DNA of 64,000 nt from an uncultured delta proteobacterium (GTDB lineage Bacteria > Desulfobacterota > WTBG01 > CAIYCZ01): the NCBI GenBank assembly GCA_963803975.1, contig CAWDOY010000003.1:160001-224000 (forward strand), given 5' to 3'. The position numbers were made by a program, and so were the translations under genes. The first letter of the stretch is position 1, and every line of letters begins with the position of its first letter. The notes beneath the pieces were generated by a model that saw only the letters and a list, made by a program, of their open reading frames with translations, had not been told where the DNA came from and made no database searches. This document shows, in pieces, positions 1 through 59,005 of this stretch.

Positions 1-874
1 CTATTCTTCGTCAAACCGCTTATCCCTCAGACTGTCTACAAACTGCGGGGTAATGACAGAAATTCCCTTTTCTTTTGCTGCATCAACAACCACTTCTATC
101 ATTCCATTCAAAAAGATAGCGGGCACTTTCAAAAGCCGTGCGCAGGCATCTTCCTGCCATGTGATGTTCGGGTCAAATCGGGAACAGGCATACTTAACGG
201 TTGCCATGGTGTTGCCTTTTCCCCGCGGGATCGGGATAGCATAGGGCGGTGAGTGCCTGGCAAACCAGAACCGTACATTATCCCGGTATCCATAATCAAC
301 GGGCAGGGCAGGGAACCCCTGTCCCTTGAATAAACAATCCCGCCATTTTTTCTGCATGATGATTTTGTCAATGCGCAGCAGAAAGTGGTATTCCATGCGC
401 TCTTTATTATGCTGCAGCGTAAAACTCTCATCCCAGCTGCACAAAAAGACCTGAACCGCCTCTTTCACAATATCAGGATGCGTCGCGCAAACCTGGCGGT
501 TGCGCGGCTTGCCATACGGGGTTGCCGGCAGCAGGGTAAAGATGCTTCTTTTCATTTTCTCCTCAGTGGTCTCACCGGGATAACCAAGCATAACGCAGTT
601 CTTCATATATTTCTTCGTGTCAGGAATATAATTAAGGGAGCAAACTTTCGTGCGTATGATGTTAGCGGCGGTATTGCTGCTGCCGCGTGCGATAAGCATC
701 ATGGCGTGCTGCTGGTCTCCCGCGATAATATGGGGAAAGCAGAGTGAATACGGTCCCAGGTTGATCATCCCGGACTCTGAATAAGGTGCTCACCAGTATC
801 ACCGGCATCGGAATAAAACTCGACGTCTGATAAAAGTTATCTACAATTCGTATTTCGGTAAAATCCTGAGACAT
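1..874 (-). CDS. Flavin reductase-like protein (DIM6/NTAB family) with C-terminal PCP_red domain; one frameshift near 780
   Basis: ORFs 662..874 and 1..768 join if one T near 780 is removed, giving PMPVILVSTLSESGMINLGPYS...SNTAANI...SLNYI, a flavin reductase-like pattern. The C-terminus ITWQEDACARLLKVPAIFLNG...AAKEKGISVITPQFV matches PCP_red. Confidence 0.75.
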
Positions 875-937
875 GCATGAACCTCCATTGGAAAGAGTAA
901 AATGTTATAATTAACCGCGTTAAACAGATAATATAAG

Positions 938-974
938 AGCCCTTTAATTTCAAGAAAAATGAAATTAAAGGGCT
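938..974. promoter_or_regulatory. Perfect 15-bp inverted repeat in the divergent promoter region (candidate operator)
   Basis: AGCCCTTTAATTTCA-7 nt-TGAAATTAAAGGGCT. Confidence 0.55.
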
Positions 975-986
975 GATAAATATATC

Positions 987-1025
987 TTGACTCGAAAGTT
1001 GCTTGTGATAATAGTTTGGAAACTA
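987..1025 (+). promoter_or_regulatory. Putative sigma70 promoter overlapped by a short palindrome
   Basis: TTGACT at 987-992, TG-n-TAATAG at 1006-1014, and palindrome TAGTTT-GG-AAACTA at 1012-1025. Confidence 0.4.
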
Positions 1026-1101
1026 AATATAAGGTATCAAATTAAACAGCATGTGGCAACATAATTATTACAGCTGATAATCGGCTGACCATTTACCGGA
1101 T

Positions 1102-1602
1102 ATGAAGACAGGAAAGAAAATAATGAAAAATAAAAATGAAAACATTAATTTAAAGGAAATTGAGGAGTTCGGAGATCATCTGCGCAATTGGAGAAATTTT
1201 TTCACTGAGTTTTTTAATAACGTAATAAAAGACAGCGGCAAAATATCAGGCTTTGATTTCAGTATGTCACAGTTTAAGACCATGGGGGCCTTTCGGGAAG
1301 ATACGGTCTATACCATGGGCGAGTTAAGTAAAAATGCTTCTGTTACCATGCCGACCATGACTGAAATGATTGATAATCTGGAGCGGGAAGGAATTGCCGA
1401 GCGGATAAGGGATTCTCAGGATCGGAGGGTAGTAAAGGTACGTTTAACTGCAAAAGGAAAAAAGCTGCGCAAGAAATTCATGGATAAACGAAGGAATGAA
1501 CTTAAAAACATACTCAGCAATCTGAGTAAAGAAGACCGGGGTGAGCTTATGAATGCGCTTGCCAAAGCGTACAGCGTACTGAAGAAAAACAGCACGGTAT
1601 AA
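1102..1602 (+). CDS. MarR family transcriptional regulator (alternative start at 1123)
   Basis: Winged-HTH signature TMGELS...VTMPTMTEMIDNLEREGIAERIRDSQDRRVVKVRLTAKG. Confidence 0.92.
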   Translation: MKTGKKIMKNKNENINLKEIEEFGDHLRNWRNFFTEFFNNVIKDSGKISGFDFSMSQFKTMGAFREDTVYTMGELSKNASVTMPTMTEMIDNLEREGIAERIRDSQDRRVVKVRLTAKGKKLRKKFMDKRRNELKNILSNLSKEDRGELMNALAKAYSVLKKNSTV

Positions 1603-1637
1603 TACGGCCTGTAGAATAAACAGATAAGGAGAGGATT

Positions 1638-2883
1638 ATGCTTAAAAGCTATGAGCACTGCTGTTCTTCAATGCAGGCTTTGGCAACACTGGGGAAGGTG
1701 GAGGGAATCATTCCTTTGCTGCATGGACCGCAGCCATGCGCCTATCAGATTCAGATAGGAACCATGACCTGCCGTCCATCACGCCTTCTTACCGCTGGTA
1801 CTTTGATTAAGAAATCAGAGGTGGTCTTCGGCGGCGAAGAAAATTTAAAAAATCAAATAATCAATATGTACCGCCAGTATAAGCCAAAAATAATCGTAAT
1901 CATCAATACGTGTCTTCCCCAGCTCATCGGCGAGGATATAAAAGGGGTAATCAGTGAAATAGAACTGGAACTGCCTGATTTAAAAGTGACCTATATTGAC
2001 AGTGGATTCAATTTCCCTAAATGTATGCCTCTGGGAAACGATGTGGCGTGGGTATCGATCGTGAGACTGCTTGAAATAAAAGAGAAGGTAAAGGGATCAA
2101 TTGGTCTGGTTGGAAGGTCAGGGCAGGATGCCGGAGCTTTTACATCATTTGACACGTTTTTAAAGCGGGCAGGGATTACGGTATTCCCGTTTCCCGCTCC
2201 GCATCTGAATGAAATGGAAAAAATTGCATGTGCAGAAATTATATTCCCAGTCCATGTAGTACCGTTCCTGACCTGCAAAGAGATGAGCGAACGCTTCGGG
2301 TCAAGGGTAGAATATATTGAAATTCCTGCAGGTGTGCAGGGCACTACAAATTTCCTGCGGGGGGTTGCTGATATCCTGAAAAACCAGAAGCTGCATGATC
2401 TGGTGGATACAGCAGGAGCAGGAAATGCGGCCCCGCATAGAAGCTATAAAAGAGCGCTTTGCCAAAAACCCGATTAAAGTGATGTTTGCATTCGGGCCGG
2501 CAAGTGAGTTCGGGCTGAGCAAGATTATGGCTGACTTCGGAGCTGAGGTCATAATGATTCCTTCAATGAAAAATAAGTTCGCACAGCAGGAGAAAGAGCT
2601 GCAGAAGAAGCGATACAACGTGACTATTATTGAGGAAGATTTTGATACCCTGGAGGATCTCTATGATCAGTACCGGCCGGATGCAGTGTTTTGTGAAACG
2701 CAGGGCCGGGTAGAACTTACCTCGCGGCTTATTCCAACATTTTGCAACATGACTTATTTAACTGCTTACGGATATGACTTTGCTCTGGATATGGGGGAAA
2801 AGTTCCATGAGAGTATGAAGCTCGATGTATTATCATCCTGGAGAGATGTGGTTCAGAGATACGGAGGCGATCTCAATGCGTAG
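1638..2883 (+). CDS. Nitrogenase component-1-like oxidoreductase, alpha-type subunit (BchN/BchY/CfbD-like); frameshift near 2405
   Basis: Three cluster-ligand motifs EHCCSS, LHGPQPC and NTCLPQLIGEDI, plus EVVFGGEENL. ORFs 1638..2477 and 2395..2883 join by removing one G near 2405 (about 415 aa). Confidence 0.85.
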
Positions 2884-4639
2884 TACTGAAGGCAAGGCAA
2901 TGAAGCAGCTGGAACTGGCAGGCGCCCGCGAGCTGAAGATGAAGGAGATTCATAAGCCTTCAGCGTTTGAGGGGGCTTTGTGGACGGCTCTCGGTATAAA
3001 AGATGCGCGGGTTATTTACCACGCACCTCCCGGCTGCTACATCAGTCAGCATATGGATGCGCTGATGCATGAGTATCCGTTTGAATTATATACGACGTCA
3101 CTTTCATATGCCAATGTTATGCAGGGTGCAGAGAACCAGCTCGAAGCAGTGTTGAGAAAAACCCTGGCACGAAAACCAAAACCGAAACTGGTAATCATTG
3201 TTACTTCTCCCAGTGTTGAAATAACCGGCGATGATGTGGAGGGGGTTGTAGAAAAAGTCGGAGATAAAAACTGTGTCGTAATAAGGCCCCCGATTGGCGG
3301 AAGCCTGCACGAGGGAAGGGAAAAGGCGTTAATAAGTCTGATAGACATAATGGTTCCAGCTGTTGAAAAGATTGCTAAAACAGTTAATTTTATTGGTCCG
3401 ACTTTTGATACCTTTAACTGGAGAGCTGACGCATTTGAGCTAAAAAGAATGCTTTCACGTATCGGCATCAAGGTTAATGCGGTACTGACCGGTGGATCAC
3501 GAGTGAATGAAATTATTAACGCACCACGTGCTTTATTAAACCTCTGCTTGTATCCCTATGACTGCGGTATTGAGACGGCGCAGATCATGGAGAAGAAATT
3601 CGGCATTCCGTATCTTGCCGGCCATGTACCAATTGGTTTTAAAGAATCTGCTGTCTGGCTTGAAGAAATTGCTGGCTTTTTCAAGGTGGACGCACGGGAA
3701 TATCTTAAAGAAGAGACCGAAATGATATTTGAACTAATCCAGTCCTTTATGGTGCTGCCTATTACGTTTGAATGCTCTGCTGCTCTGTCGCTGGATAATA
3801 ACGATACCTATGCAGTGGGCATAAGTCAATTTCTGAAAAAGGAATTGGGAATGGAGCTCTCCATGGTGGCTGTAGGCAGTGATGCTGCAGGGGAAAAAGT
3901 AAAAGAAGTCTGCAGTAATGTTCTGGTAGAACCTACCATTGATGAAAAGAAGGAGCAGTTTATCGAAAAGGGCCCGATGATGATTATGGGCAACTTTTAT
4001 GATTTAAAGATAGCCAAAGAACTTGGTTTTAATAACTTCCTCTTCGCTGATATTCCAACGCTGGGATACATTGCCACAGAGGCAAGCCCCTACATGGGTT
4101 TCCAGGGGGCAAGGAATTTGATTCAGCAGACGGGCAATCAGATTTATATCAATTTTCTCATTGAGACCAAGGGCGGCATGGAAGAAGCCATCTCTTTGGG
4201 AGAAATTCCCTGGGACCTTGATGCACGGGAAGCGTTTGTAAAAGTCGCAGCCGTAATTCCGCATTTTATTAAAGCTACCGCCATGAGAAAGCTGCAGAAA
4301 AAAGCAGAAGAGCTTGCAGTTAAAAATGGCACGGGAATTACTATGGATATAATTAGAACGGTAACAGAACAGTACACGCCAACCAGGTTTAAATCAAAAT
4401 TTTTATCTGCATTGCAGGGCGGTCAAGACGGAGAGCAACAGGGGGAATTTTCTGCAGAACTAACATTTACCATGGAATGGGATGCACCAGCCAGGGAATT
4501 GATGGAAAAGATTCCGCAGGAAGTTAAAACAATGGCAGTTGCAGGTACTGAGGAATTTGCAAGAGAGAAAGGCTACAAAAAAATAACAGTCGGCGTAGTG
4601 AATGAGTTCAAAGAAGAGGCCGGCATGGGGAAAAATTAA
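2876..4639 (+). CDS. Nitrogenase component-1-like oxidoreductase, beta-type subunit (BchB/BchZ-like) with two C-terminal PCP_red domains
   Basis: Motifs PSAFEGA, YHAPPGC, TSPSVEITGDD, FNWRADAFELKRML and PYMGFQGA. Tails IPWDLDAREAFVKVAAVIPHFIK and MEWDAPARELMEKIPQEVK...EEFAREKGYKKIT. The ATG at 2876 overlaps the end of the upstream gene. Confidence 0.85.
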   Translation: MRSTEGKAMKQLELAGARELKMKEIHKPSAFEGALWTALGIKDARVIYHAPPGCYISQHMDALMHEYPFELYTTSLSYANVMQGAENQLEAVLRKTLARKPKPKLVIIVTSPSVEITGDDVEGVVEKVGDKNCVVIRPPIGGSLHEGREKALISLIDIMVPAVEKIAKTVNFIGPTFDTFNWRADAFELKRMLSRIGIKVNAVLTGGSRVNEIINAPRALLNLCLYPYDCGIETAQIMEKKFGIPYLAGHVPIGFKESAVWLEEIAGFFKVDAREYLKEETEMIFELIQSFMVLPITFECSAALSLDNNDTYAVGISQFLKKELGMELSMVAVGSDAAGEKVKEVCSNVLVEPTIDEKKEQFIEKGPMMIMGNFYDLKIAKELGFNNFLFADIPTLGYIATEASPYMGFQGARNLIQQTGNQIYINFLIETKGGMEEAISLGEIPWDLDAREAFVKVAAVIPHFIKATAMRKLQKKAEELAVKNGTGITMDIIRTVTEQYTPTRFKSKFLSALQGGQDGEQQGEFSAELTFTMEWDAPARELMEKIPQEVKTMAVAGTEEFAREKGYKKITVGVVNEFKEEAGMGKN

Positions 4640-4744
4640 ACGAAATGTTCTTAACAGAAAGGAGGCAAACATTTACGCAATAATAGCAGAAAATGAAAGC
4701 CAGAGAAAATTTAAAACTATGAAAAAATATGGAGGAGAATTGTT

Positions 4745-5785
4745 ATGAAAAAAACATTGTCAGTACTGTTTGCTTTTATATTTATGGTTAGTTCCGCCTC
4801 TATACTATTTGCTTCAGAAGCAAAAAAGGCAGCAACTGCAGGCGGCAAAGAAAAGATAGGTATTCTTATGGTTGCCCATGGAGAGCCGGAAACGTTTGAT
4901 GCTCCGGTATGGGAAAAAGGCTTAAAACTGATGTTCAAAGAGTTTAAGGACTCCGGCATGGAAGTACCTACTGATGAAGCATTTCCGACAATCCTTGAAG
5001 AGATTAAGCATAAATATGAGGTTATGGGAGGTAAATCACGCCATGCCGAAATGTCACGATTGCAGTGCAAGCTTGTCTGCACAGAAGATGCCCGGCTATG
5101 ATTTCCGTCTTGGCTTTATGGAGTTTATGGGGCCTGAATTTTCCGAAGTGGCAGAAGGGATGATTAAGGATGGAATTAAAAAGATAGTCTTTCTGCACAT
5201 GCTGCAGACGGATTCCACACACACCGGAGAAATAAACAACAAGATAAAAGAGATGAAGCTTGAGGAGCGGGGGATAAAATACGCAATCAGCAAGCCACTC
5301 TTCTACAGACCTGAACCTACGCAGCTCGTTATCGATAAAATTTTGAAAGCTACCGGGAATACGCCGTATGAGCAGGTCGGGGTTGTGCTTGCATCACACG
5401 GAGAACCTGAGGCCTGGGTTAAAGCGAATCTGTTAAATACAAAATGCAAAGAGCAGGAGATTGCATTCTGTAACTGCGTAAAAAAGGGCTTAATTGAGAG
5501 AGGCTTTGTTTGGGAAAATATTACCCAGGGATTTAATGAATTCCAAAAACCGGAAATGCCCGAGGCGGTAGAGCTTATGGCTGAACGGAAAGCAAAGAAA
5601 GTGGTTGTCATCCCCAGCTTTGGCACTACTGAAGGAATGCATATCACCTACGATATACCGACCAAAGCACGGACAGCTTGGTAGATCCTTCAATAGAACT
5701 GGTTTATACCGGAGGATGGAACGATAACCCGCTTCTTATAAAAGCATGGGTTGAGCTTGCAAAAGAGGCTTTGAAAAGGTTGTAG
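4745..5785 (+). CDS. Class II chelatase-like protein (two CbiX/SirB-type domains) with N-terminal signal peptide; frameshifts near 5077 and 5680
   Basis: Signal-like MKKTLSVLFAFIFMVSSASILFA, then VAHGE...YEVMGGKSRH...DSTH and ASHGE...GMHITYDIP. The downstream frame continues LVDPSIELVYTGGWNDNPLLIKAW...KRL*, collinear with the paralog at 10450. Confidence 0.75.
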
Positions 5786-5814
5786 TGACTAACTATTTTA
5801 AAAGGATACTAAGC

Positions 5815-5985
5815 ATGGCAAAAATAGATACAACTAAGTGTGTAGGATGCGGCGGGTGCATTGACCTCTGTCCAGTGATTGCGATTGCTATGATACAGGA
5901 TGTGGTGACTGTAGATCAGGATATCTGTACAAAATGCGGCATCTGCATAAAAGTCTGTCCCGTGCGTGCACCTTACGAAGATTAG
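5815..5985 (+). CDS. 2x[4Fe-4S] ferredoxin
   Basis: CVGCGGCIDLCP and CTKCGICIKVCP motifs, 56 aa. Confidence 0.95.
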   Translation: MAKIDTTKCVGCGGCIDLCPVIAIAMIQDVVTVDQDICTKCGICIKVCPVRAPYED

Positions 5986-6022
5986 CACGAATAATTAGAC
6001 ATTTTATAAAAGAGGATGCTAT

Positions 6023-7354
6023 ATGGCAAAAAAATATGATCTCGTGATAGTGGGCGCGGGCCCTGCAGGATTAATGGCTGGAAGAATCGCTGCTGAGAAC
6101 GGCTTGAAGGTTGTCATTTTAGAGAGGAAAACAGATATCTGCAAGGTGAGAAGATTTGACGGCGGCGTGTTTGCTATCAATGAATACACCTTTGGCCAGC
6201 TCGCTTTGTATAACGAACGGGATAAGAGGGTCACTTTTCCTGTTGGCGGATTTTCCACTCGCTATGACGGCCCGTACACCAATGTTTTTGGCTTCCACCT
6301 TTATTCGCCGGGAGGAAAAAGGCTGCGGTTTGGTGACTGGACGAAACTGAAGGACGATCCAATAAAAAACCGGGTAGCCATAGCGCTCAATAAAGAAATA
6401 CTGTTAAAAAGCATGCTTGATGATTGTCTGGCAACGAGTGTTGAGGTGTTACCCAATGTAAATGTCACTGCCGTGAAAACCGGCGATAACCGGGTTACGG
6501 TAACCGGCAACGGCGAGGAGTATGAAGCACCGTTTCTGATAGCGGCAGATGGTTCTAATTCGAGGATTGCACGGCTTGCCGGTTTCAACAAAGAACGGGA
6601 GTTTTTTGCTACCTCGCGTCACATCGGTTATGAGGTTGAGGGAATGGACTATGATGAATTAAACGGGTTTATCATAGCTCTCACCAAACATGGCTTCTAC
6701 AGCATACTCCCTTATTTTGAAAAAGGGGTAAATCACATCGGGCATCTTACCCATGACCCGTCAGTAGACCTGCATGCAACCATGCAATGGTTCATCAAGG
6801 AATCGCCGGTCTTTTCATCCTGGTTTAAAAAGGCCAAGGTGCGCGAAACAGGACTTACCGGATGTGTTGTGAATGTCTATAAGGCACTGGAAGACCCGTT
6901 TAAAGATAATGTGATACTGGTGTCTGATGCTGCCTGGATACAGGAGGTGAGCATTCCCTCGGCAATGTGTTTTGGCTGGAAGGCGGCAAATGCTGTTACG
7001 CTGGCTTTGCATGATGGAAAACCAAACCGTGAAGGAGTGCAAAGCTATCTTGATTGGTATGGCATTAATTTTTACCAGCCGCACGGCAACAGAAAAATGG
7101 TTGCAATTGAAATGCAGAAGTTTCTTGCAACCGAAGACCTTGATTATCTGGCAGAGCTGCCGGGGAAGGTCTTTCGCCAGACCATGGATTTCCACTATCT
7201 GTTCCATATGCTCGGCGAGATATATGGCGGAGACGGGATGATAAAAATATCAGAAGAGCGTCCGGATATCATGGAAAAGCTTATTGATGCGCGGGGAAGT
7301 ATGGCAGAAGCATCTGAGGAAAGACGCAAGATGGGTTTTCCCGGGAAAAAATAA
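6023..7354 (+). CDS. FAD-dependent oxidoreductase, geranylgeranyl reductase/FixC family
   Basis: YDLVIVGAGPAG Rossmann motif, LIAADGSNS and ILVSDAA motifs, adjacent to the ferredoxin. Confidence 0.85.
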   Translation: MAKKYDLVIVGAGPAGLMAGRIAAENGLKVVILERKTDICKVRRFDGGVFAINEYTFGQLALYNERDKRVTFPVGGFSTRYDGPYTNVFGFHLYSPGGKRLRFGDWTKLKDDPIKNRVAIALNKEILLKSMLDDCLATSVEVLPNVNVTAVKTGDNRVTVTGNGEEYEAPFLIAADGSNSRIARLAGFNKEREFFATSRHIGYEVEGMDYDELNGFIIALTKHGFYSILPYFEKGVNHIGHLTHDPSVDLHATMQWFIKESPVFSSWFKKAKVRETGLTGCVVNVYKALEDPFKDNVILVSDAAWIQEVSIPSAMCFGWKAANAVTLALHDGKPNREGVQSYLDWYGINFYQPHGNRKMVAIEMQKFLATEDLDYLAELPGKVFRQTMDFHYLFHMLGEIYGGDGMIKISEERPDIMEKLIDARGSMAEASEERRKMGFPGKK

Positions 7355-7372
7355 TAAACAAAGGAGAAGAAC

Positions 7373-8188
7373 ATGAATAAAATCAGATTACCAATAATAC
7401 CAGTTATAGTTGCAGCACTGATGTGCATGTGGGCATACGGCACCGTAGCCTACGCAGCCGCAGATATAAAAGCTTTGAAAACTAAAATAGACGATACCTG
7501 GGACAGTGGTGATTTTAAAGCATTTGAAAATCTGGAAAAGGAATTAACTTCACAGGTTAGCGATAAGGATGCTGATGGCTGTCTGGTGCTGGCTAAATTT
7601 TACTATTGGTATTCGATGCTCTATGCGGAAAAAGCAAATACTGATAAAAAGCACTGGCTTGATGAGGAAAAGTATGCCGGCGATAAGGCACTGTGGGCTA
7701 AAGGCGGGGAGATGATTGATAAGGCCCTTGACTTAATTAAAAAGGCTGATGAAATGAGTCCGGGAAATCCCCAAATACTTCCTTATTATGCTGTAATCAA
7801 ATATCGCAAGATACGCCATTGCGGCAACATGATATGTGCCATGCTGCATATGAAGAGCCTTTTGGATGTAACCCGGCTTACCATTGAGAAAGGCAAAAAT
7901 GACGCAAGCGCCAATCTGGCTTATGGTATCTACAAGCTCGGCAGATCACAGAAAATGGGAGGCAATCCCCGTGAAGCCATCAGCTATCTGCAGGTGGTTA
8001 TAAAACTTGATCCCAACAGGGCCGAAGGATATTTCTGGTACGGTAAATTTTTCATGAGCCCGAATATAAAATTTCAACCTAAGCTTGCCCGTCCGAATTT
8101 TGAAAAGGCGGTTGCTCTTAATCCAAAAAACTGGCTGTATAAGGAAACGCTTGAACAATTTAACAAAGACTATCCTCCTGAAAAATAA
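7373..8188 (+). CDS. Secreted TPR-repeat protein
   Basis: Signal peptide ending ...AYA-A and TPR-like repeats (EAISYLQVVIKLDPNRAEGYFWYG; ARPNFEKAVALNPKN). Confidence 0.75.
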   Translation: MNKIRLPIIPVIVAALMCMWAYGTVAYAAADIKALKTKIDDTWDSGDFKAFENLEKELTSQVSDKDADGCLVLAKFYYWYSMLYAEKANTDKKHWLDEEKYAGDKALWAKGGEMIDKALDLIKKADEMSPGNPQILPYYAVIKYRKIRHCGNMICAMLHMKSLLDVTRLTIEKGKNDASANLAYGIYKLGRSQKMGGNPREAISYLQVVIKLDPNRAEGYFWYGKFFMSPNIKFQPKLARPNFEKAVALNPKNWLYKETLEQFNKDYPPEK

Positions 8189-8208
8189 AACAACAATAAT
8201 TCTGCTAT

Positions 8209-8245
8209 GGTTCGGGACCATCTTTAGTTTAGGCGGTTCCGAACC
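8209..8245 (+). terminator. Intergenic stem-loop (terminator or mRNA stabiliser)
   Basis: GGTTCGGGACC...GGTTCCGAACC, 11-bp stem with one G-U pair. Confidence 0.45.
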
Positions 8246-8277
8246 TTAATAAATTTAAATACACCAAGAGGTATAGC

Positions 8278-9717
8278 ATGAAAATTCTTAAAATAGTCCT
8301 ACTATGTATAGTTGTTCTTGTTATCGCAGGGTATGGATTATACAAGTATAAAAACCTACCACAAAAACCCGATTATTATGAGTTCTATAAGAATCAGGAT
8401 ACCGTGCCTGAAGGGAAGATAGGGGTTCTGGTGGCCGGCTTGATCATGCCGGAAAAGATCAGCCCGGTGTTTTTCAATAATGTAGCGAAAAAAATCTTTA
8501 AGACGATCGTTCCCTGGCCGGCCCGCAATTTTGTTACAGCAGATAAAGGGGTCGCTCTGCTTGATCCGGTTACGTTCCACTCTCATGAATCTTTTACGCC
8601 GACCAGTCTTATTGACCCTGATGGTAGCGACCGTGACATAGACGGAATGCCCTATATCGAGAAGTATAAGCAGGGACTGGTGAAATGGGTTCCCCCATCA
8701 TCCATGCTCTATCTTGATCACGGCTATTTTCTCTACACCGGACGCAAGGGTGGCCAGCCAACTATTTGCGGGAAAATAATAAATAAATCCCGCATCTGGT
8801 ATCACAATAAAGGCAGCCTCCAGCATGATCTTCCCCACTGGAAGCAGACCTTTAAGGTAATTGATGGTGCACATGAAAAGCTGAAGGAAAAATATGGAAA
8901 TATTGAGTTCCGGGCTGAATGTAATATGTTTTATTATGAGCTGCGCGAAAAGCTCTATGAACTGCTCGATGCAGGATGCACTACGCTCGTGCTCAGCTCG
9001 CCTCTTCCCATGTACTCGCACTTTGAAGAATTTAACTCAGGTTTTCGCCACTGCTTTGAGTTTATTGAGGAGTGGGAAAAAGAACACCCCGGTAAGAAAA
9101 TTAAGGTCATCATGGCGCCGCCCATGGGGCTCTATCAGCCCTATCGAAAGGCGTTTTTAGAAATGCTGAAAGACCGATTGGATACTTTGCCTAAAGATGC
9201 CAGCATTACGGTAGTGGTAAGTGTTCACGGCATGCCCTGGGATCTTTTCACATGGGAAGCATGGATACAGCTTGCTCCACCCTGGCGCGACAAGCTGTTT
9301 GAAGAAATCAAGGAGATGGTGGATTCATATAAATTTAAAAAGACTAATGTGGTAGCAGCACAGGATGAGTTTGCAGACCCGATCTGGGACCCAAAACAAA
9401 AATATCTTTCAACCAACCGCGCCTACTGGAATGCAATCAAGGAAGGATATGATTATGCGATTAATATCCCGATAGAATTTTATGGCGAAAACTCAGATAC
9501 GATGTTTCACCATGCACTGAAAAACTATCACGGGTTTGATCAGTATGATTTGTATAAGCCGATTGATTATCCTGACTGGTCGGTTCCTTTAACCAGAGAA
9601 TTTGTACAAGGAAAAACCCGCATAATATATAATGGAGTGCCGGTAGGCAAATATCAAAAGTACGTAATTGAAGCATTTTACCAATCAATTGACTCCATTT
9701 TATCTAAGAAAAAATAA
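8278..9717 (+). CDS. Ferrochelatase (HemH)-like protein with N-terminal membrane anchor
   Basis: N-terminal hydrophobic helix. HemH-like motifs: PLPMYSH (cf. LYPQYS), VSVHGMP (cf. SAHGLP) and IPIEFYGENSDT (cf. PxGFVxDHLE). Confidence 0.6.
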   Translation: MKILKIVLLCIVVLVIAGYGLYKYKNLPQKPDYYEFYKNQDTVPEGKIGVLVAGLIMPEKISPVFFNNVAKKIFKTIVPWPARNFVTADKGVALLDPVTFHSHESFTPTSLIDPDGSDRDIDGMPYIEKYKQGLVKWVPPSSMLYLDHGYFLYTGRKGGQPTICGKIINKSRIWYHNKGSLQHDLPHWKQTFKVIDGAHEKLKEKYGNIEFRAECNMFYYELREKLYELLDAGCTTLVLSSPLPMYSHFEEFNSGFRHCFEFIEEWEKEHPGKKIKVIMAPPMGLYQPYRKAFLEMLKDRLDTLPKDASITVVVSVHGMPWDLFTWEAWIQLAPPWRDKLFEEIKEMVDSYKFKKTNVVAAQDEFADPIWDPKQKYLSTNRAYWNAIKEGYDYAINIPIEFYGENSDTMFHHALKNYHGFDQYDLYKPIDYPDWSVPLTREFVQGKTRIIYNGVPVGKYQKYVIEAFYQSIDSILSKKK

Positions 9718-9737
9718 TTTGTTATTTGCCTGACTCG

Positions 9738-9785
9738 CAAGCAGGTTCAGACCTTGCCGCATAAGGATGGGTCTGAACCTGCTTG
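9738..9785 (+). terminator. Intergenic stem-loop with a perfect 16-bp stem
   Basis: CAAGCAGGTTCAGACC-16 nt-GGTCTGAACCTGCTTG, with no U-tract. Confidence 0.5.
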
Positions 9786-9852
9786 GAAAATTCAATCTGC
9801 AACACATAATATATCAACCAGCACTAAATGGGTCTTAACGGTGGAGAAATTA

Positions 9853-10440
9853 ATGGACATTTTAGCAATCTGTGGAAGTCCCAGAAAACATAAAACTACT
9901 CACAGCGTGCTGGAGGCGGTACTGTCTGGAGCAGGCAGGCCATATGAAATACTGTGGCCTGCTTTTATGAAGATTGGCCACTGCATAAGCTGTCAAAAGT
10001 GTAAGTACAAAACACCTGGCGAATGCTGGCAGGACGATGACATGAAAGTGGCCATCGAAAAAATGTTTGCAGCCAGAGCGCTTATAATAGCATCTCCCAC
10101 TTATTTTGGTAATGTACCAGGCCCCTTAAAGAACTTTATCGATAGAACCATCCCTACCTGCTATACCGGCAAGGGAGACACTTGGATGGGAGCAGAGAAC
10201 CACGGGAAACGGCCTTTTAAGGGGCAACTCGGCATGATTGTTGTCGTGTCGGGTGGTGCTGACCAGGAGAAAACAGCAGCTAATCTGCGCCTGGTATTTG
10301 ATTATTATGAATATGCTGTGATTGGAGAATTTGCCGAGAGCATGGGTGGGATTATTGTCAGCAAACAAGAATACCCGGATATCTATACCAGGCTTTTTGC
10401 TCTTGGCAAAATACTTGATGAAGCCCTGAAAACAAGGTAA
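9853..10440 (+). CDS. Iron-sulfur flavoprotein / flavodoxin-like FMN reductase family
   Basis: ICGSPRK, compact Cys motif CISCQKCKYKTPGEC, and ASPTYFGNVPGPLKNFIDR. Confidence 0.9.
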   Translation: MDILAICGSPRKHKTTHSVLEAVLSGAGRPYEILWPAFMKIGHCISCQKCKYKTPGECWQDDDMKVAIEKMFAARALIIASPTYFGNVPGPLKNFIDRTIPTCYTGKGDTWMGAENHGKRPFKGQLGMIVVVSGGADQEKTAANLRLVFDYYEYAVIGEFAESMGGIIVSKQEYPDIYTRLFALGKILDEALKTR

Positions 10441-10449
10441 TATACGAAC

Positions 10450-11562
10450 ATGACAATAGAAGGGATAAATTCCAAAACAGGGATAATCATGATTGGCCAT
10501 GGAGAGCCGGAAGTCTTTGAAGAAGAACTGTGGGCTGAAGCGCTGCATGAAATGTTTGAGGAGTTAAAGAGAACCGGTATCGAAGCTCCTTCTGATGAAG
10601 CCATTCCCCTGATGCTGCCCATAATAGAGGGAAAATATGCAGCCATAGGGGGCAGATCAAGACATAATGAGATCATTGGCAAGCAAAGCGAACTAATAGC
10701 CCGGACGTTGCATGAACACGTAGTCAGTTATGGATTCAATGAATTCACCAGCCCGCATTTTACGGCCGTTACCGAGCAGATGATACGTGAAGGAATAACC
10801 AGGATGGTGTTTGTTCCCATGCTGATGACAGATTCCTCGCATACGCAGGAGATAAAAAATAAAATTGAATGCATGAATCTGCAAGAACAGGGTGTTACCT
10901 GGGTTATGAGTAAGCCACTCTTTTATAGACCGGAACCAATACAACTGGTAATAAATAAAATTATGCGAGCTGCGGGAAACATTCCGCCAGATAAAACAGG
11001 CATACTACTCGTTTCCCATGGAGAACCGGATCAGTGGGCTTTATCGTCCACTATACATACCAAATGCAATGAGCAGGAGAAAGCGTTTGCTTTGAGTGTA
11101 AAAAAGGGGCTTATTGAGAGAGGCTTCCCAGGGGAGAATATCGTGCGGGCATTTAATGAATTCACCCATCCTGAAATAGCAGAAGCGGCTGAAGGACTGG
11201 CGCATAAAAAAGTCAAAAAGATTATTGCCGCAGCCACCTTTGGCAATACTGACTGTATCCATGTAAACTATGACATACCGGCAAAACTAATAGAATCTAT
11301 TGATAACGCAGCCGTAGAGATTGTTTGTCTTGATGGGTGGAATGAAGATCCTCTGCTGATTACCGCATATTGCGAACTGATCAAGGAATCGCTGCTACTG
11401 CTATCTGAAAACCAGATTGAAGGTTGCTACCTGTCGAAGGGGGGTAGCAGCGTCTGCAGTCAGAATGCAAACAATCATTACAGAGCAATAATAAAGCGTC
11501 TGGCTGCTGCTCGCATAGGGGCACATGTCTCTTTATCCCTGACCATAGAGCCGTACGACTAA
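10450..11562 (+). CDS. Class II chelatase-like protein (two CbiX/SirB-type domains), cytoplasmic paralog of 4745..5785
   Basis: IGHGEPE...YAAIGGRSRH...DSSH, SKPLFYRPEP and VSHGEP...CIHVNYDIP, with no signal peptide. Confidence 0.78.
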   Translation: MTIEGINSKTGIIMIGHGEPEVFEEELWAEALHEMFEELKRTGIEAPSDEAIPLMLPIIEGKYAAIGGRSRHNEIIGKQSELIARTLHEHVVSYGFNEFTSPHFTAVTEQMIREGITRMVFVPMLMTDSSHTQEIKNKIECMNLQEQGVTWVMSKPLFYRPEPIQLVINKIMRAAGNIPPDKTGILLVSHGEPDQWALSSTIHTKCNEQEKAFALSVKKGLIERGFPGENIVRAFNEFTHPEIAEAAEGLAHKKVKKIIAAATFGNTDCIHVNYDIPAKLIESIDNAAVEIVCLDGWNEDPLLITAYCELIKESLLLLSENQIEGCYLSKGGSSVCSQNANNHYRAIIKRLAAARIGAHVSLSLTIEPYD

Positions 11563-27699: not shown

Positions 27700-29106
27700 A
27701 TGTCGCATAATACTCTACTAACCGATACCCCGCAGCTGCCAGAAGGCTCTTTTCATAAAGAGATAGAATCATTCCATATAATAACTCATCCTTCAAGACC
27801 ATCGTGGGCTGTCATAAATAAATTTGGCTGGGAAATCCTGCAACAGTGTAATGGAAGAAATTCGATAAACGATATTATTAATACCATAAAATACCAGTAT
27901 GATATTTCCGATAGTATTCTTAGAGATGATATCGCGACCTTTATACAATCTGTCACCAAATCCGGCATCATGTCGAATGACGAATTGCCGGTTCAAGCAA
28001 ACGCAGCGGCAATTAAAAGCGCCTTTCTTCATTTGACTGATACCTGTAATCTTCATTGTAAGCACTGCTATGCACATAACATGTCCGAAGGGAATCCGGA
28101 ACTTACCGACAAGGAACTCACCTCTTTGGTAGAAAACTTTTACGAAGCCGGGGGCAAAGCTTTAGTTATAAGCGGTGGCGAACCGTTACTACGGAAGAAT
28201 TTTAAAAACATTTTTGAAATTAACCCTGAAGCGCACTTCATTCTTTTAACAAATGCTACCCTCATTGATGAAAACTATGCGTCATTCCTCGCCCGGTTCA
28301 ATGTTTCAATACAGGTAAGTATCGATGGCGCAACCGCCGGTGTGCATGATAGCATTCGTGGAGATGGAGCATTTCAGGCCGCAATGAAGGGGATTGAGCA
28401 TCTGCAACGATGCGGATTACAGAAAAAAATAAATTTATGCACTACGGTCATGAAACAGAACATCAACGATCTGCCGAATATTTTTGCTCTTGCCAGCAGT
28501 CTCGGAATACCGTTTGTCAGGTTCCTTCCTCTCCGACGGAAGGGCAACGCACGTACTAACTGGCAGGATATCCAGGGTGAGGTTTCTGCAAAGGATTATG
28601 AGCAATTTTATACCTATGTATTTAAAACTGCTATGCGTCAGTATCCAGAACTTGATATACGATGCGGCTTAAGCGGATTCATAGTGGACCCTAAGAAGCT
28701 TATGGATGATGGTCATTGGTGCCCGATTGGAAAAAACATAATAATCGACACCAGAGGGAATGTATATCCCTGTTCTCTGCTTATCAACGATAGATTTAAA
28801 ATCGGCAATATAAAAGAAAATACTTTCAACGATATACTAAAACACCCCACTCTTCTGGAGTTAATGGCTGCACGAAACAAAAGAAAAGATACAATTGAGA
28901 AATGCAAAATATGCATGTGGAAAAATTTCTGTCAAAGCAGTTGCCTGGGCTCCATCTTCGAGCAACAGGGTACCATCTGGGATACCGACGAGTTTTGCGA
29001 TTTCAGAATCAGGTTATATGAGCAGAGTGTTATTAAACTTGCCCACAATAGATCATCAGCCACGCCCCCTATGCCTATCGGAGATACCACCGAAGAATGC
29101 TTCTAA
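27700..29106 (+). CDS. Radical SAM/SPASM peptide maturase with N-terminal RRE domain
   Basis: N-terminal INKFGWEILQQCNGRNSINDI (RRE), CNLHCKHC, SGGEP, and SPASM CPIG...VYPC...IGNI...CKICMWKNFCQSSC...FC. Confidence 0.92.
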   Translation: MSHNTLLTDTPQLPEGSFHKEIESFHIITHPSRPSWAVINKFGWEILQQCNGRNSINDIINTIKYQYDISDSILRDDIATFIQSVTKSGIMSNDELPVQANAAAIKSAFLHLTDTCNLHCKHCYAHNMSEGNPELTDKELTSLVENFYEAGGKALVISGGEPLLRKNFKNIFEINPEAHFILLTNATLIDENYASFLARFNVSIQVSIDGATAGVHDSIRGDGAFQAAMKGIEHLQRCGLQKKINLCTTVMKQNINDLPNIFALASSLGIPFVRFLPLRRKGNARTNWQDIQGEVSAKDYEQFYTYVFKTAMRQYPELDIRCGLSGFIVDPKKLMDDGHWCPIGKNIIIDTRGNVYPCSLLINDRFKIGNIKENTFNDILKHPTLLELMAARNKRKDTIEKCKICMWKNFCQSSCLGSIFEQQGTIWDTDEFCDFRIRLYEQSVIKLAHNRSSATPPMPIGDTTEECF

Positions 29107-30267
29107 CCTTGAATGATAAACAACTATCAGCCATTAAACGGTCTGCAGTTCACAGCGCACACTTCCGGTTTCTGAATGTAAGCCTCACCTTCTCCTCAGA
29201 TTCGAACGAGGCCGTTGATATTTTTTCAGCCATGTATCAAAATTTTATGGCGTCTGCGCAACCAGTTCCTGACATTTTGTGTTATATAATAAAGGAGACA
29301 GACACGGGAAGCAAAGCCGGCTGCAGTTGTTAATGGCAAGGCCTATGAACTATTTGAAGACGAGCTTTTCATAAGCCATGCACATATGATTGTTTTTCAG
29401 CATGTTCTGGACACTATTGACGACCACCTGCTTATACATGCAGGAGTTGTCGCAAAAGAAGGCAGGGGGATTATCATTTCGGGTCCGTCAACATATGGAA
29501 AAACAACAATGATGCTTGAACTGGTATCACGGGGATTTGAATTTTATTCAGACGAATTCTGCGCGGTGAATCTCAGTGACTTTACCATTACGGCTTTCCC
29601 TCGCAGCATCGGTCTCAGGGAAAGCAACCCTTTTCTCAGCCGCATAGACAAAAGTAAATGCTTATTGCTGAAGAATATAGGAAGGGGTAAAAAATATCTG
29701 GTTAATTGTGATAACATATTCCCGAATTCCAGAGGATCAATCTGTAAAGCACACTATCTTATATTGTTAAAAAACAGGCAGACCACTGAAAAAATGAACA
29801 ATAAAACTACGATTGATCTTGCCCTCTATAATGATAACCAGACTCTTGCTGATGAAATTTGCAGCCATGATGGCATCGACCATATAGGTACGTATATGGA
29901 GAGCGACTATGTGGTATACCGCTTCTCAATACCTTTACAGACCGGTCTGACTAAAGCATTCAGAGACATCTGCAACCGTTATACAGATCAAATATTTTAT
30001 CAGGAGCGGGTGACACAGGAAGATCCTGATTTTATCTCCGAGCCATTTCTTAAACCTATAGCAAAATCCGCCGCTTCCCTTGAGATACTTAAAAATCTCA
30101 GAAACCGCTCGATACACAGCAAACTGCTTAATAAATTTAACCATAAAAGCTCTCAACTCCTGCTTACCATAGGTGATTTTCTCAACGGAGTGGAGTGTTA
30201 CGAAATGACTACCGGGCCATTAAATAAAATGGCTGCCATGATCGAATCACTGTATCAGAAAGGATAG
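29097..30267 (+). CDS. HPr kinase-related P-loop protein; frameshift near 29310
   Basis: LIHAGVVAKEGRGIIISGPSTYGKTT...FYSDE motif. The N-terminal ORF 29097..29333 joins through the frame KPAAVVNGKAYELFEDE. Confidence 0.75.
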
Positions 30268-30275
30268 GATATAAA

Positions 30276-33200
30276 ATGAAAGTTATTATTAGGATTGCAT
30301 CATTGTTCTGGGCGGTGGTGTTCTGCTTCATTACAGTACATACGGCGCATGCTGCTGATATATCGGTGCGTCTTCTGAATGAAACACCGGATGGTTTGGA
30401 CATGGATGTTACCATATCCAACTATTCCCTCATAGCATCTCCGTATCAGTCATATCAGAAAATTGTGATACAGGGATGCGGTAGTAACGCCCGGGAAGGG
30501 GCACCGGGCGTGTCACTGAGGGGTCAGCTCATTGAATTGCCGGAAGGAAGTGAACTGGCAGTCTCGTATCAGTCTTTAGATAAAATAACCCTGCGCAACG
30601 TATTGCTGGCTCCTGCTCCTGGTGCGATCGTTGAGGAGGATAAAGCCGGCTCAAAACAGCTGAGCGAACAGTACCGTATCGATGAAGCAGCCTATACAGC
30701 AGATGCCTTTTACCCGGGTAAACTTGCAGCTGCAGACTTTACCGGTTACTTGCGTGACAAACATATCGCAAACATTATTTTGTATCCGGTTCAGTATAAT
30801 CCGGTTGCAAGAACGCTTGAAATTCATACTAGATATAAAGTTCACCTGCGATTTATCAGTATAGAAAAAGACGCAGGGAAAAATCAGCTAACAGATTATA
30901 GAGCAGCGAGCAGATTGGAAAACACGCAGCAGAACACTTTTAGCACTCTTTATAAAAAAGTGCTGCTCAATTATAAAGCAGAAGGCGGCAACCTTTCACA
31001 ACAATCAGATTTACAACTATCGAGTACTGTTCGCGCACCGTCATTACAGACAGAAAACAGCCCCTTTGCGGTGAGGGTAACGCTGAAGGATGAGGGGATT
31101 TACAAGGTCAGTTACGACGATTTAAATGCATTGGGCATTGATTTAACAGCTGCCACCAACGAGAATATCAAAATGGAAAATCAGGGCAGGGAAGTGCCTG
31201 TGTATCGCAGCAGTTCCGGTCCTTTCAAGGCTGGTGATTACCTTCTGTTTTATGGGGAGCCGTTCAAGTCGCTCTACAGCAAGAGCAATGTATATTGGAT
31301 CTACCGGGGCTCTGGTGCCGGGAAAAAAATAGAACAAATGCCGGCCGGATCGTTTAACAGTTCAAATGTTCAGCAGACCTTTAACAGCAGCTATCACGGA
31401 GAGGTGGATAAAAAATACTGGGAATCAATTCCCAATGGCGCGAATGTTGATCACTGGTTCTGGGAGAGTCTTCAGCCTACTGAAATCAACACTGCCAAGG
31501 TAGTATTATCTCCCCCGGCACACCTGGGAAACATAAGCACCGCCGGCGGTACTTATACCATGAAGGTTAATTTAAGAGGGGAAACGACACTTGCTCACCA
31601 TACCAGGGTATATGTCAATGGTACCGTTGTTGATGACTTCACCTGGAACGGACAGATTGAATACACTAAAACTATTCCAGCCATCACTCCCACGGTATTT
31701 AAGAATGGTGACAATGCCATCCAAATAGAGGAAGTGCTCGATCCGGGAACAACCGTGGACCGGATTTATATAAACTGGTTCGATATCACCTATACAGCTG
31801 CCTATGTTGCTGAAAGCGATATGTTGAAATGTAGTGGCAGCAGTTCCGGCAACGCATCATTAGAAATTAAAAAATTCACTACTAATAACATCTGGGTATT
31901 AGACATCACCAATCCCCTAACCGTCACAAACGTTACCAATACACAGATAACAGAAAGCGGCGGTCAGTATACTATTGCGTTTGGCGAGCCGGGATCGGGA
32001 AGCAAAACCTACATGGCTGTTGCAGCAAGTAAATTCAAAACACCAGCTGAGATGGTTGCGGATGAAATTTCAAATCCTCTTCTTCAGTCACCTCGAACGG
32101 ACATCGACTATATTATAATAACACACGAATTGTTTTTTGATGCCGTACAGGATTTGAAACAGTACCGGGAAGATAAAGGACACCGAGTTGAAGTCGTCAA
32201 AATCCAGGATATCTATGATGAATTCTCCTATGGGATAAAAGACGCTCGCGCCATAAAGGACTTCTTAACGTACGCCTACAATAACTGGAACAGTACCGGT
32301 CATCCCACCTATGTACTGCTGGTGGGTGATGCCAGTATTGACTACCGTGATGATACTGGTAATTTTGCCAAGGGTAATGTTGATTTTGTACCTACGTATC
32401 TTATTCAGACTTTTACGCTCGGGGATACACCCACTGATAACTGGTTTGTTTGCGTAAATGGAACGGACCTTCTTCCTGATATGTTTATTGGGAGGATGTG
32501 TGTCAAGACGGTAACTGATGTTACCAGTATTGTAAATAAGATAAAAGCATATGAGCAGGGCACTGCCGGCACGTGGACTAAAAAAGTTATTTTAGCATCA
32601 GATAATGACACCGCTTTTGTTCAAGCTTCTGATGATCTAATAAAATTGCTGCCAGCCAATTATTCTGCAGAAAAGGTATATTTGAATGACTATGCTAATG
32701 TAGAAGCTGCAACCAAGGATTTAGTGAACAAGATAAATGACGGCAGCCTGCTGACTAATTATACCGGTCATGGCTCTGTTGACAATTGGGCTGGAGAGTT
32801 CCTTTTTCACACAACCGATGACAAGGATCAACTACCCCGCAATGATGTTGAACTGCTAACCAATGGGGACAAACTTACCTTCGTTATGACCCTGAACTGT
32901 TTGAACGGGTTTTTCCCTAATTTTCTTGACAAATATTCACTTGCGGAGGAATTTGTACGGGCAGAAAATAAAGGCGCTGTTGCCTGTTTTGCTCCTACGG
33001 GCCTGGGTTTTACTTCTGAACATGAGGTGTTGGCTAACAAGATGTTTAACCTCCTGTTCACAGAGGGGATAAATGTCGCCGGTAATCTTGTTACGTCGGC
33101 GAAAATTGCCGCGTATACAGAGATACAAGCCTCTGATCTCGTTGAGACCTTCGTTCTTTTTGGTGACCCGGCCACGGAACTACAGACAACGTCTGTTTCA

Positions 33201-33532
33201 TCTGCAATTAAACTGCTCAGCCCCGAAGATGAAGCTGTGCTGCAAAGGTTTACCCGGTATACATTTACCTGGGACGATACCAAGAACATGGACAAGTATA
33301 AGCTGGAGTTTTCATCAGACCCGGCATTTCCGGTCAATAAGATTATGAGTGCTCCGTTATTAAAGGCCCAGTTTATCACCGCGAAGGAATATACGCCAAA
33401 CTTTTTATCAGGTTTATCCTCAACATTATGGGCATGCAGAATGAAAAATTATACTGGCGTGTCGTGAGTTACGGTAACGGAAACGAAATTCTGGAGTATT
33501 CTCAATACCGCTCATTCTCCATTAAAAAATAG
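30276..33532 (+). CDS. Secreted C25 family (gingipain-like) cysteine peptidase with propeptide; frameshift near 33405
   Basis: Signal peptide, propeptide FYPG...LYPVQYNP, DYIIITH, IYDEFSYG and YVLLVGDA, and catalytic NYTGHG and LNCLNG. The shifted tail LYWRVV...YRSFSIKK* ends at 33532. Confidence 0.88.
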
Positions 33533-58935: not shown

Positions 58936-59005
58936 GGTGCTGTGATTAAGATTACCGGGAGATGGTAAAAGTTGGCCGTGCCTTTTCCACGTCTGAGGCA
59001 CGCTG

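Follow-up and report, generated by a model that had tools for sequence, protein, structure and literature searches.

Introduction

The described systems that come closest to the one treated here are nitrogenase-like (NFL) reductases. Two belong to Group V, dark-operative protochlorophyllide oxidoreductase (DPOR; BchL-BchNB) and chlorophyllide oxidoreductase (COR; BchX-BchYZ), a third is CfbCD of the F430 pathway, which is paired with the class II chelatase CfbA, and a fourth is Group VI, from Elusimicrobia, Gracilibacteria and aquatic Myxococcales, which has no assigned function and for which the available text of a review and a preprint predicts tetrapyrrole reduction (PMC13474568; bioRxiv 10.1101/765248). 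That 2026 review, in the part available, counts the assignment of functions to uncharacterised NFL clades among the greatest challenges of the field (PMC13474568). Here we analyse a 64,000-nucleotide stretch from an uncultured delta proteobacterium (contig CAWDOY010000003.1, positions 160,001 to 224,000, forward strand; hereafter the window), whose first 11,562 positions hold an operon with an NFL alpha/beta pair. A preliminary description of the window had proposed an undescribed tetrapyrrole-processing system. Our comparisons confirm alpha and beta as a tight, isolated NFL clade outside every characterised family, and full-text literature searches, including the available text of the 2026 review and of the Group VI paper, found no description of that clade.

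The window lies on contig C3 of genome G000 (57 contigs, 98% complete). L-numbers below denote fetched loci, G genomes, C contigs and X metagenome runs.

Family placement and cluster ligands of the alpha and beta subunits

The alpha gene (1638..2883, + strand) encodes ~414 aa when intact and is read in the window in two frames, 1638-2477 and 2395-2883, which match Oxidored_nitro with 141.6 bits (profile 1-246) and 31.1 bits (profile 254-391). The beta gene (2876..4639, + strand) gives 226.6 bits on Oxidored_nitro and ends in a PCP_red domain (45 bits, residues 552-596); its open reading frame (ORF) opens at 2825, and the start at 2876 (587 aa) was placed from homologue lengths of 561-596 aa.

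Neither subunit comes near the equivalog cut-offs of the curated NCBIfam models (TIGR01279 BchN 420 bits; TIGR01278 BchB 490; TIGR02015 BchY 425; TIGR02014 BchZ 529; TIGR03282 CfbD 268; NifE 505; range for NifD, NifK, NifE and NifN 327-654). The best curated models for beta are BchB, at 155.9 bits (180.9 for the paralogous beta on contig C50), and BchZ, at 114-146 bits (114 in the window), while alpha reaches 66-71.5 bits on BchN across the pairs (71.5 in the window). The BchY model gives 19-21 bits, with C50 proteins only; the Nif models (NifDK, NifEN) give 19-82.5 bits and CfbD 43-45 bits for alpha and 26-32 for beta, all short of membership. Among solved structures beta matches ChlB best (E 7e-19), its tail aligning with residues 457-510 of the ChlB chain, and alpha matches the NifEN and nitrogenase alpha chains best and shows no preference for BchN or BchY. 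The identity of beta to BchB and to BchZ is 23% in each case.

The isolation of the clade is equally apparent in wider searches. A phmmer scan of 1.84 billion representative sequences returned 1247 matches at E <= 0.001, of which just 24 reach E <= 1e-30; identity is 39-51% for three full-length representatives and <=32% for the next full-length ones. When 89 full-length matches were compared with NCBIfam, 86 reached no model at E <= 1e-70, two reached BchB and one BchZ. In an 87-row tree the 14 family betas form one clade and the 12 family alphas another (SH-aLRT 100), on stems of 0.84 and 1.66. A 43-row beta tree rooted on NifK/NifN unites the family and two unnamed representatives (100/100) and places this clade as sister to BchB, BchZ and three unnamed representatives, a union with values of 88/81 and flagged long branches. 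With moderate support, beta thus appears to be sister to the BchB/BchZ lineage, not within it. A separate clade of both subunits, which the preliminary description would count as support for novelty, is found by scores and trees alike.

Alpha Cys8/9, Cys34 and Cys92 are invariant in 12/12 family alphas and align with the ligand cysteines of BchN, BchY and NifD; beta Cys54, in the motif HAPPGC, is invariant in 13/13 and aligns with the Cys of BchZ and the Asp of BchB (three BchB sequences). At the second NifK/NifN Cys position, which in NifK and NifN lies in TTCL, beta has no Cys, and this is not the P-cluster pattern. We take the cluster ligands of DPOR to be three Cys of N and one Asp of B; in the present family a beta Cys replaces the Asp, and the ligands follow the 3+1 Cys pattern of COR. 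Three Cys from alpha and one from beta at the BchZ column imply a COR-type, four-Cys, inter-subunit [4Fe-4S] cluster, which is a likeness of the cluster site and not membership of COR. The conserved residues had already been picked out, with the PCP_red tail, in the preliminary description. Alpha and beta are together a heteromeric catalytic component of DPOR/COR type, with ligand positions in the 3+1 Cys arrangement.

Paralogous pairs and Fe-protein genes

A genome-wide Fer4_NifH profile search found no NifH-like gene in the window operon. G000 gave seven matches, two of them strong (309 and 261 bits), and both strong ones stand in tandem on C50 in the layout MarR-H1-H2-alpha-beta (H1-H2 at L017:9882-11577). 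The obligatory ATPase gene is thus lacking and is located with the paralogous pair on C50, so the window operon cannot work alone, a point missing from the preliminary description. In all, G000 has three alpha/beta pairs, one in the window, one directly upstream (G000:C3:156922-159966, the locus beginning before the window start) and one on C50. G035, from the same family, has the three-pair layout too.

H1 and H2 reach 260-310 bits on the NCBIfam model NifH (cut-off 394) and 254-302 on CfbC (NF033200, cut-off 402). They are 41-44% identical to NifH and 57-61% to each other. The GKGGIGKS P-loop and both cluster Cys columns are kept in H1 and H2 of five loci, as befits NFL Fe proteins; in the CDPK motif H1 has Ser, whereas NifH, BchL, BchX and H2 have Asp. 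Fe proteins are described as homodimers in the available text of the NFL review (PMC13474568). At C50 and at 15 relatives' loci, H1 and H2 always occur in tandem, even beside a single alpha/beta pair, which suggests that the two may form a heterodimeric Fe protein.

Distribution and gene neighbourhoods

In a word-indexed search 147 clusters matched at E <= 1e-10. Those listed, 120 in number, have 561-596 aa, all combine Oxidored_nitro with PCP_red, are 49-94% identical, and are unnamed, 'hypothetical' or auto-named BchB (one BchZ). In a sample of the phylum 8/401 species genomes match at E <= 1e-30, including G000 and one with just a 30%-identical NFL protein. Within the window's class 22/42 genomes match at E <= 1e-60, these being kin and not independent; by family, with G000 left out of the counts, the matches are f1 3/3, f2 13/17, f112 1/1, f4 4/11, f3 0/8 and f113 0/1. 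The metagenome runs that contain the sequence carry the labels sediment or freshwater.

We compared 22 family loci besides the window region. C50 and ten others (L018-L020, L036-L042) were annotated by Pfam and tblastn; the remaining eleven (L077-L087) were searched by tblastn with 36 query proteins, and further genes there are unseen. The core module MarR-H1-H2-alpha-beta occurs in 16/22 (C50, L019, L020, L037, L039-L042, L078, L080-L085, L087), and MarR precedes the NFL genes at 16/22 loci other than the window's. What we call the window-type order, alpha-beta-ferredoxin-GGR-CbiX-TPR (GGR, geranylgeranyl reductase-like), is found in L036 (G035), with no H genes, as in the window; in L020 it stands behind H1-H2 and leads on to MarR and CobN. 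The L018 contig breaks off after alpha-beta-ferredoxin, and L019 reads MarR-H1-H2-alpha-beta-MarR-alpha-CbiX-CbiX-FeoB-Fe_bilin_red. Conservation of the neighbourhood in other genomes is partly supported: it holds for L020 and L036, which have the window-type order with a CbiX-like gene, and for the two CbiX-like genes of L019, but in the fetched stretch a chelatase-like gene accompanies only 4/22 of the other loci.

Other neighbours are mixed. DUF1302/DUF1329 genes adjoin the core module at 4/22 loci (L037, L039, L082, L084), with BNR and MMPL genes too in two of them; HemL-HemB-CobA/HemD lies directly beside it in L039; B12-radical-SAM genes are near L038, L077 and L079; and short-chain dehydrogenase (SDR), NmrA-like, PNPOx-like, FMN_red/flavodoxin and aldehyde:ferredoxin oxidoreductase (AFOR) genes occur as well. 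Adjacency of bilin-reductase-like genes was considered as evidence and set aside: it occurs at 3/22 loci versus ~2 expected, by a rough estimate, from 6-22 copies per genome, and as it is about at chance level these neighbours are not counted as support.

The clade can be described as a putative lineage of NFL reductases next to Group V that is marked by its conserved tandem pair of Fe-protein genes and by a gene context that is new, Group VI having been compared by description only.

One member locus has an anomaly of its own. At L020:2466-4865 (= G363:C42) a 799-aa ORF fuses alpha to the last two thirds of beta, ~220 beta residues being missing, and the genome search counted one in-frame TGA in this region. 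A deletion, a chimeric assembly or recoding of the codon could each account for the fusion.

Other genes of the operon and the window

All genes listed in the preliminary description are present on the + strand within 1-11562 according to Pfam and ORF scans, co-oriented and spaced ~10-130 bases. MarR (1102..1602, +; PF01047, 34.3 bits) heads the operon. Behind beta lies chel1 (4745..5785, +), a class II chelatase-like (CbiX/HemH-like) gene in three frames (4745-5101, 4974-5684, 5678-5785) with a signal-peptide-like N-terminus; its identity to the CbiX-like genes in L020 and L036 is 62-69%. It is followed by a small 2x[4Fe-4S] ferredoxin (5785..5985, +) with two CxxCxxCxxxCP motifs, which scores 45.6 bits on NCBIfam FdxA_fam (cut-off 65) and is kept 3' of beta in L018, L020 and L036. 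The next product is an FAD protein (6023..7354, +), a distant GGR relative whose best NCBIfam match is TIGR02032 (GGR superfamily; 75 bits, cut-off 158.8); orthologues 84-91% identical occupy the equivalent position in L036 and L020, and paralogues are on C13 and C39. A TPR protein with a hydrophobic N-terminus (7373..8188, +; weak TPR matches) has orthologues in L020 and L036 that are 57-58% identical.

The membrane-anchored ferrochelatase-like protein of 479 aa (8278..9717, +) is the one listed member just under its Pfam cut-off (Ferrochelatase, 26.3 bits against 27). It has an N-terminal hydrophobic helix, its nearest Atlas clusters are named 'putative ferrochelatase', and its paralogues are on C4, C31 and C32. 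An FMN_red flavoprotein resembling iron-sulfur flavoprotein (Isf) follows (9754..10440, +; PF03358, 85 bits; CxxCxxCx7C motif), with a likely start ATG at 9850 and a 76% identical paralogue on C32. The last gene encodes a second class II chelatase-like (CbiX/HemH-like) protein of 370 aa (10450..11562, +; CbiX 61.1 and Ferrochelatase 57.6 bits), without a signal peptide. This copy passes the Pfam cut-offs for CbiX and Ferrochelatase, all chelatase-like copies fall below the NCBIfam equivalog cut-offs, and against solved-structure sequences the 370-aa protein found no match at E <= 0.01. The CbiX-like orthologue of L020 matches only Bacillus ferrochelatase among solved chelatases, and weakly (E 2e-9), its SHGEP aligned to AHSLP of the Bacillus enzyme. 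The His in this alignment is presumably the catalytic His of class II chelatases. Signal peptides or membrane anchors are predicted on chel1, the TPR protein, the 479-aa HemH-like protein and the C50 hydrolases.

A divergent, conserved gene precedes the operon on the minus strand (1..873, -; ~290 aa), flavin-reductase-like and PCP_red-like, called as an ORF at 1-768 with a frameshift near 780-790. It belongs to the locus and is absent from the preliminary description; L018 (93% identity) and L036 (80%) have orthologues beside their operons, and C42 carries a paralogue. Its matches to PCP_red (C-terminal, E 0.007-0.0005) and Flavin_Reduct (N-terminal, E 0.08-0.0007) are below cut-off and consistent in position, and its nearest Atlas clusters are named 'flavin reductase like', one of them having PCP_red in 47% of members. 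A structure prediction for this protein from a 4-sequence alignment was unusable (mean pLDDT 29.9). In the divergent intergenic region upstream of marR lies a 22-nt inverted repeat (931..981) with arms 86% complementary and 7 nt apart. It may form a hairpin or serve as an operator, but the reading as a MarR operator conserved in the family was rejected, the exact motif being confined, among 87 loci, to G000's own copies.

In the window as a whole, ORF listing and Pfam scans of 47 ORFs found no bch, puf or nif gene, in line with the preliminary description, and no cfbB- or cfbE-like gene turned up in the same scans. The remainder is housekeeping (PheST, ThrRS, IF3, EF-P, LpxC, sigma-54 regulators); at 38512-40701 one 729-aa ORF fuses a response-regulator/sigma-54 activator to LpxC, a further hint, with the split genes described below, of indel errors or gene decay in the assembly. 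G+C is 0.37-0.49 over positions 1-34000 versus 0.46-0.53 over 36000-64000. A mobile/defence island adjoins the NFL region upstream, with a transposase, a split RhuM, N6_Mtase and HsdR/type I restriction-modification genes (L016:8510-14772). Apart from these, window 27700-29106 encodes a PqqD + radical SAM + SPASM maturase; beside it lie a C25 peptidase of 1063 aa, a pair of ABC-2 transporter genes and two ORFs that match no Pfam model, and 27700-33467 may be a peptide-modification cluster.

Tetrapyrrole-type genes elsewhere in the genome and class

Does the remainder of a chlorophyll pathway lie elsewhere in G000? A tblastn search with a Sulfitobacter photosynthesis set found no PufL/M, PuhA, BchH, BchD, BchG, BchC, BchY, BchN or AcsF, and the haem oxygenase model had no match in the genome. 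There is a full-length BchF homologue (PF07284, 154.6 bits; 40% identical to Sulfitobacter BchF) on C12 (L054:7862-8329, +), adjoining an AFOR gene; the other bch and puf genes tested were not found, in keeping with the preliminary description, which had set the operon apart from the chlorophyll pathway.

Other tetrapyrrole-type genes are plentiful, above all a large expansion of ferredoxin-dependent-bilin-reductase-like genes. Fe_bilin_red has 22 matches in G000, 17 above the Pfam cut-off (examples at C39:93300-93965, C1:147097-147750, C4:8352-9786 and C31:64184-65620), and among 14 control genomes Synechococcus alone was positive. Bilin-reductase-like genes occur in 32/42 genomes of the class, with 6-22 matches each, and in 21/22 genomes with the NFL clade versus 11/20 without. 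PCP_red has 11 matches in G000, 4 of them above cut-off. Two near-duplicate loci, on C4 (L049:4624-15758) and C31 (L050:1877-15658), carry thiolase, a 469-aa ferrochelatase-like protein, TetR and bilin-reductase-like genes together with SDR, FAD_binding_4, CCG-domain, PNPOx-like and aldo-keto reductase genes, the last with Fer4, and resemble a set of catabolic genes. Of the window genes, those for the 479-aa ferrochelatase-like, GGR-like and Isf-like proteins and the one on the minus strand all have paralogues elsewhere in G000.

Integrity of the reading frames

Alpha is split by one extra base at ~2409-2411 and chel1 by two single-base indels, at ~5077-5079 and 5676; indel breaks also occur in the minus-strand gene, the upstream alpha, the upstream beta tail and H1. 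A public metagenome-assembled genome contig (L018; beta 94%, alpha 98% identical) is without the extra base and has an intact 414-aa alpha. Logan contigs from three studies, with one metagenome run each (X1-X3), were aligned to window 1000-6100. Base 2409/2411 is omitted at full covering depth in each (X1 6.89/6.89, X2 3.7/3.7, X3 8.62/8.62), base 5077/5079 is omitted in all covering contigs (depths 6.31/6.31, 6.04/6.04 and 2.5/2.5), and a C is inserted behind 5676 in both covering runs (6.31/6.31 and 3.5/3.5); a raw-read run, X21, gave one read only. The three indels are thus absent from all covering contigs. Splits also affect unrelated genes, SBP_bac_5 (57288-59166) in the window and RhuM, N6_Mtase and HsdR upstream, which indicates assembly indel errors. 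We therefore regard the indels as either errors of assembly or private mutations, with intact genes in the natural population.

Proposed function and alternatives

What, then, might the window operon do? Tentatively, and with a probability of roughly 0.4, we propose that the window holds one module of a multi-locus, undescribed NFL system that would use H1/H2 in trans and reduce a tetrapyrrole in the direction of salvage or breakdown. H1/H2 from C50 would act as ATP-driven electron donor to the window alpha/beta, an idea that arises because C50 has the only two strong Fer4_NifH matches in a genome with three alpha/beta pairs and because G035 has a like layout. Alpha/beta would reduce a C=C bond of a tetrapyrrole-type macrocycle, with electrons supplied by the ferredoxin and by the flavoprotein that resembles Isf. 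Pigment would be bound, or its metal removed or exchanged, by the chelatase-like proteins, of which one has a signal peptide and another a membrane anchor, and the GGR-like flavoprotein would reduce a side chain. MarR would turn the module on in the presence of substrate, the window operon serving as an accessory module. That the substrate is a tetrapyrrole seems likely because of the affinity of beta to BchB/BchZ, its PCP_red tail, the ligand pattern and the recurring tetrapyrrole genes. The weakest step is the direction, in which exogenous chlorophyll- or haem-derived tetrapyrroles would be salvaged or broken down in anoxic sediment: it is suggested, less strongly, by the regulators, the exported or anchored members, the hydrophobic-compound transport genes, the paralogy, the lack of phototrophy genes, the Fe_bilin_red matches and BchF homologue in a genome with no haem oxygenase match, and the sediment habitat.

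Several observations weigh against this proposal. Alpha is about equidistant between NifE (78 bits) and BchN (71 bits), and in the 87-row tree it lies outside BchN and BchY on a very long branch, where long branches meet. H1 and H2 score lower on BchL (187-208 bits) and BchX (172-178) than on NifH and CfbC. The CbiX and TPR orthologues of L020 and L036 have no signal peptide. Class II chelatase-like genes lie in the fetched stretch at L019, L020, L036 and L078, so that their link belongs to the window-type subclade and not to the whole family, and Fe_bilin_red-like genes lie at L019, L040 and L079; with 6-22 bilin-reductase-like genes per genome, the latter adjacency is by estimate about what chance would give. 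The haem/sirohaem biosynthesis genes at L039 and CobN in L020 fit biosynthesis equally well. Characterised NFL enzymes outside Group V cleave C-S bonds too, according to the available part of the review (Chem Rev 2026, PMC13474568). Reduction of a tetrapyrrole, import and demetallation are all read from sequence and gene context.

Could the system instead make a cofactor? A new, more reduced tetrapyrrole would be synthesised from the cell's own precursors, the chelatase inserting a metal and the NFL enzyme reducing the ring, as happens in F430 or bacteriochlorophyll synthesis, a proposal that already exists for Group VI in the available text of the preprint (bioRxiv 10.1101/765248). An NFL reductase with a class II chelatase is the logic of F430 (CfbA with CfbCD), the H proteins give their 254-302 bits on CfbC, HemL, HemB and CobA/HemD adjoin the core module in L039, and L020 has CobN/Mg-chelatase H. 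We think it less likely than salvage or breakdown. MarR is found on the modules and TetR at the paralogous loci, and regulators of these types are typical of substrate-induced operons. Exported or membrane-anchored members are predicted, a cofactor pathway would not usually have three paralogous pairs and accessory genes with dozens of paralogues, and the scans of 47 window ORFs gave no CfbB- or CfbE-like gene.

A second alternative, which we regard as slightly less probable, is a substrate other than a tetrapyrrole: a hydrophobic isoprenoid, a quinone, an aromatic compound, or a C-S/C-X bond as for MarDK and IsrDK, the chelatase-like proteins being otherwise employed. It gains from the mixed context of GGR-like, SDR, thiolase, AFOR, alpha/beta-hydrolase and DUF1302/DUF1329/MMPL genes, from core loci that mostly lack a tetrapyrrole gene in the examined stretch and from an alpha with no special affinity for BchN or BchY. 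It fits less well with a beta that groups with BchB/BchZ and retains the PCP_red tail, with 3+1 Cys as in COR and no second NifK/NifN Cys, and with the chelatase-like, CobN, bilin-reductase-like and Hem genes that recur around the family.

That the window operon is a decaying, non-functional copy is very improbable: the frameshifts listed above, the lack of an H gene and the adjoining transposase and split RhuM and type I restriction-modification genes would suit it, but the indel-free contigs of X1-X3 lead us to reject a pseudogene reading, L018 lacks the extra base in alpha, the like splits in SBP_bac_5, RhuM and N6_Mtase point to assembly errors, and the orthologues in G035, L019 and L020 are intact, with well-conserved amino-acid sequences.

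If the salvage or breakdown module is pursued to its furthest form, a class of sediment Thermodesulfobacteriota might take up chlorophyll- or haem-derived pigments independently of O2, strip or swap their metal, dearomatise the macrocycle stepwise by three NFL pairs served by one heterodimeric H1/H2, and pass the products to bilin-reductase-like, PNPOx-like and beta-oxidation-type enzymes. This is a speculation of low probability. If true, it would give a first enzymatic account of what happens to tetrapyrrole pigments under anaerobic conditions, and H1/H2 would be the first reductase component of an NFL enzyme to be a heterodimer. Whichever reading proves right, the clade is a well-delimited target beside DPOR and COR, in bacteria showing no phototrophy; its tandem Fe-protein gene pair is conserved and unusual, and its gene context yields concrete, testable predictions. 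An external pigment as substrate would open the question of O2-free chlorophyll and haem transformation in sediments; if cofactor synthesis were true, the cofactor would be new.

Comparison with described systems

The periplasmic CbiK(P) of Desulfovibrio vulgaris has a class II chelatase fold and a signal peptide and is thought to handle haem outside the cytoplasm. The present system resembles it in having a signal-peptide protein of class II chelatase fold in a sulfate-reducer lineage, and differs in its chelatase-like proteins themselves, the 370-aa copy matching no solved chelatase and the L020 orthologue only the Bacillus enzyme, weakly (E 2e-9).

With the F430 pathway it shares the combination of a class II chelatase and an NFL reductase, the chelatase-like proteins reaching 53-61 bits on CfbA and H1/H2 254-302 on CfbC. 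These scores are under the cut-offs (CfbA 120, CfbC 402), however; CfbD, on whose model the present proteins reach 44 bits (cut-off 268), consists of one subunit; the window ORFs scanned include no CfbB or CfbE; and the organism here is bacterial and no methanogen.

Group VI, judged by the available descriptions, is alike in its several D/K copies per genome, in keeping no more than four (<=4) of the six P-cluster Cys positions and in the proposed tetrapyrrole link, and its H protein is ~40% identical to NifH versus 41-44% for H1/H2 (PMC13474568; bioRxiv 10.1101/765248). Radical SAM genes are said to abound at its loci, whereas here single B12-radical-SAM genes lie near 3 loci; the tandem H1-H2, MarR and PCP_red tail of the present family go unmentioned in the Group VI descriptions as available, the comparison being by description only.

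DPOR supplies the best curated model for beta (156-181 bits), and the PCP_red tail matches the ChlB tail. The differences are the BchB cut-off of 490 bits, the 23% identity to BchB, the Cys in place of the BchB Asp ligand, and an alpha with 66-71 bits versus 420 for BchN.

COR differs in identity and score (23% to BchZ; 114-146 bits versus 529; BchY ~19-21 bits), in that the two H paralogues here are nearer to NifH/CfbC than to BchX, in that beta here has a PCP_red tail, and in that G000 is without other bch/puf genes among those tested. Yet it has the same architecture, an Fe protein with a heteromeric alpha/beta component, and the same 3+1 Cys with the beta Cys at the BchZ ligand position, and the family's beta is adjacent in the tree to the clade containing BchZ.

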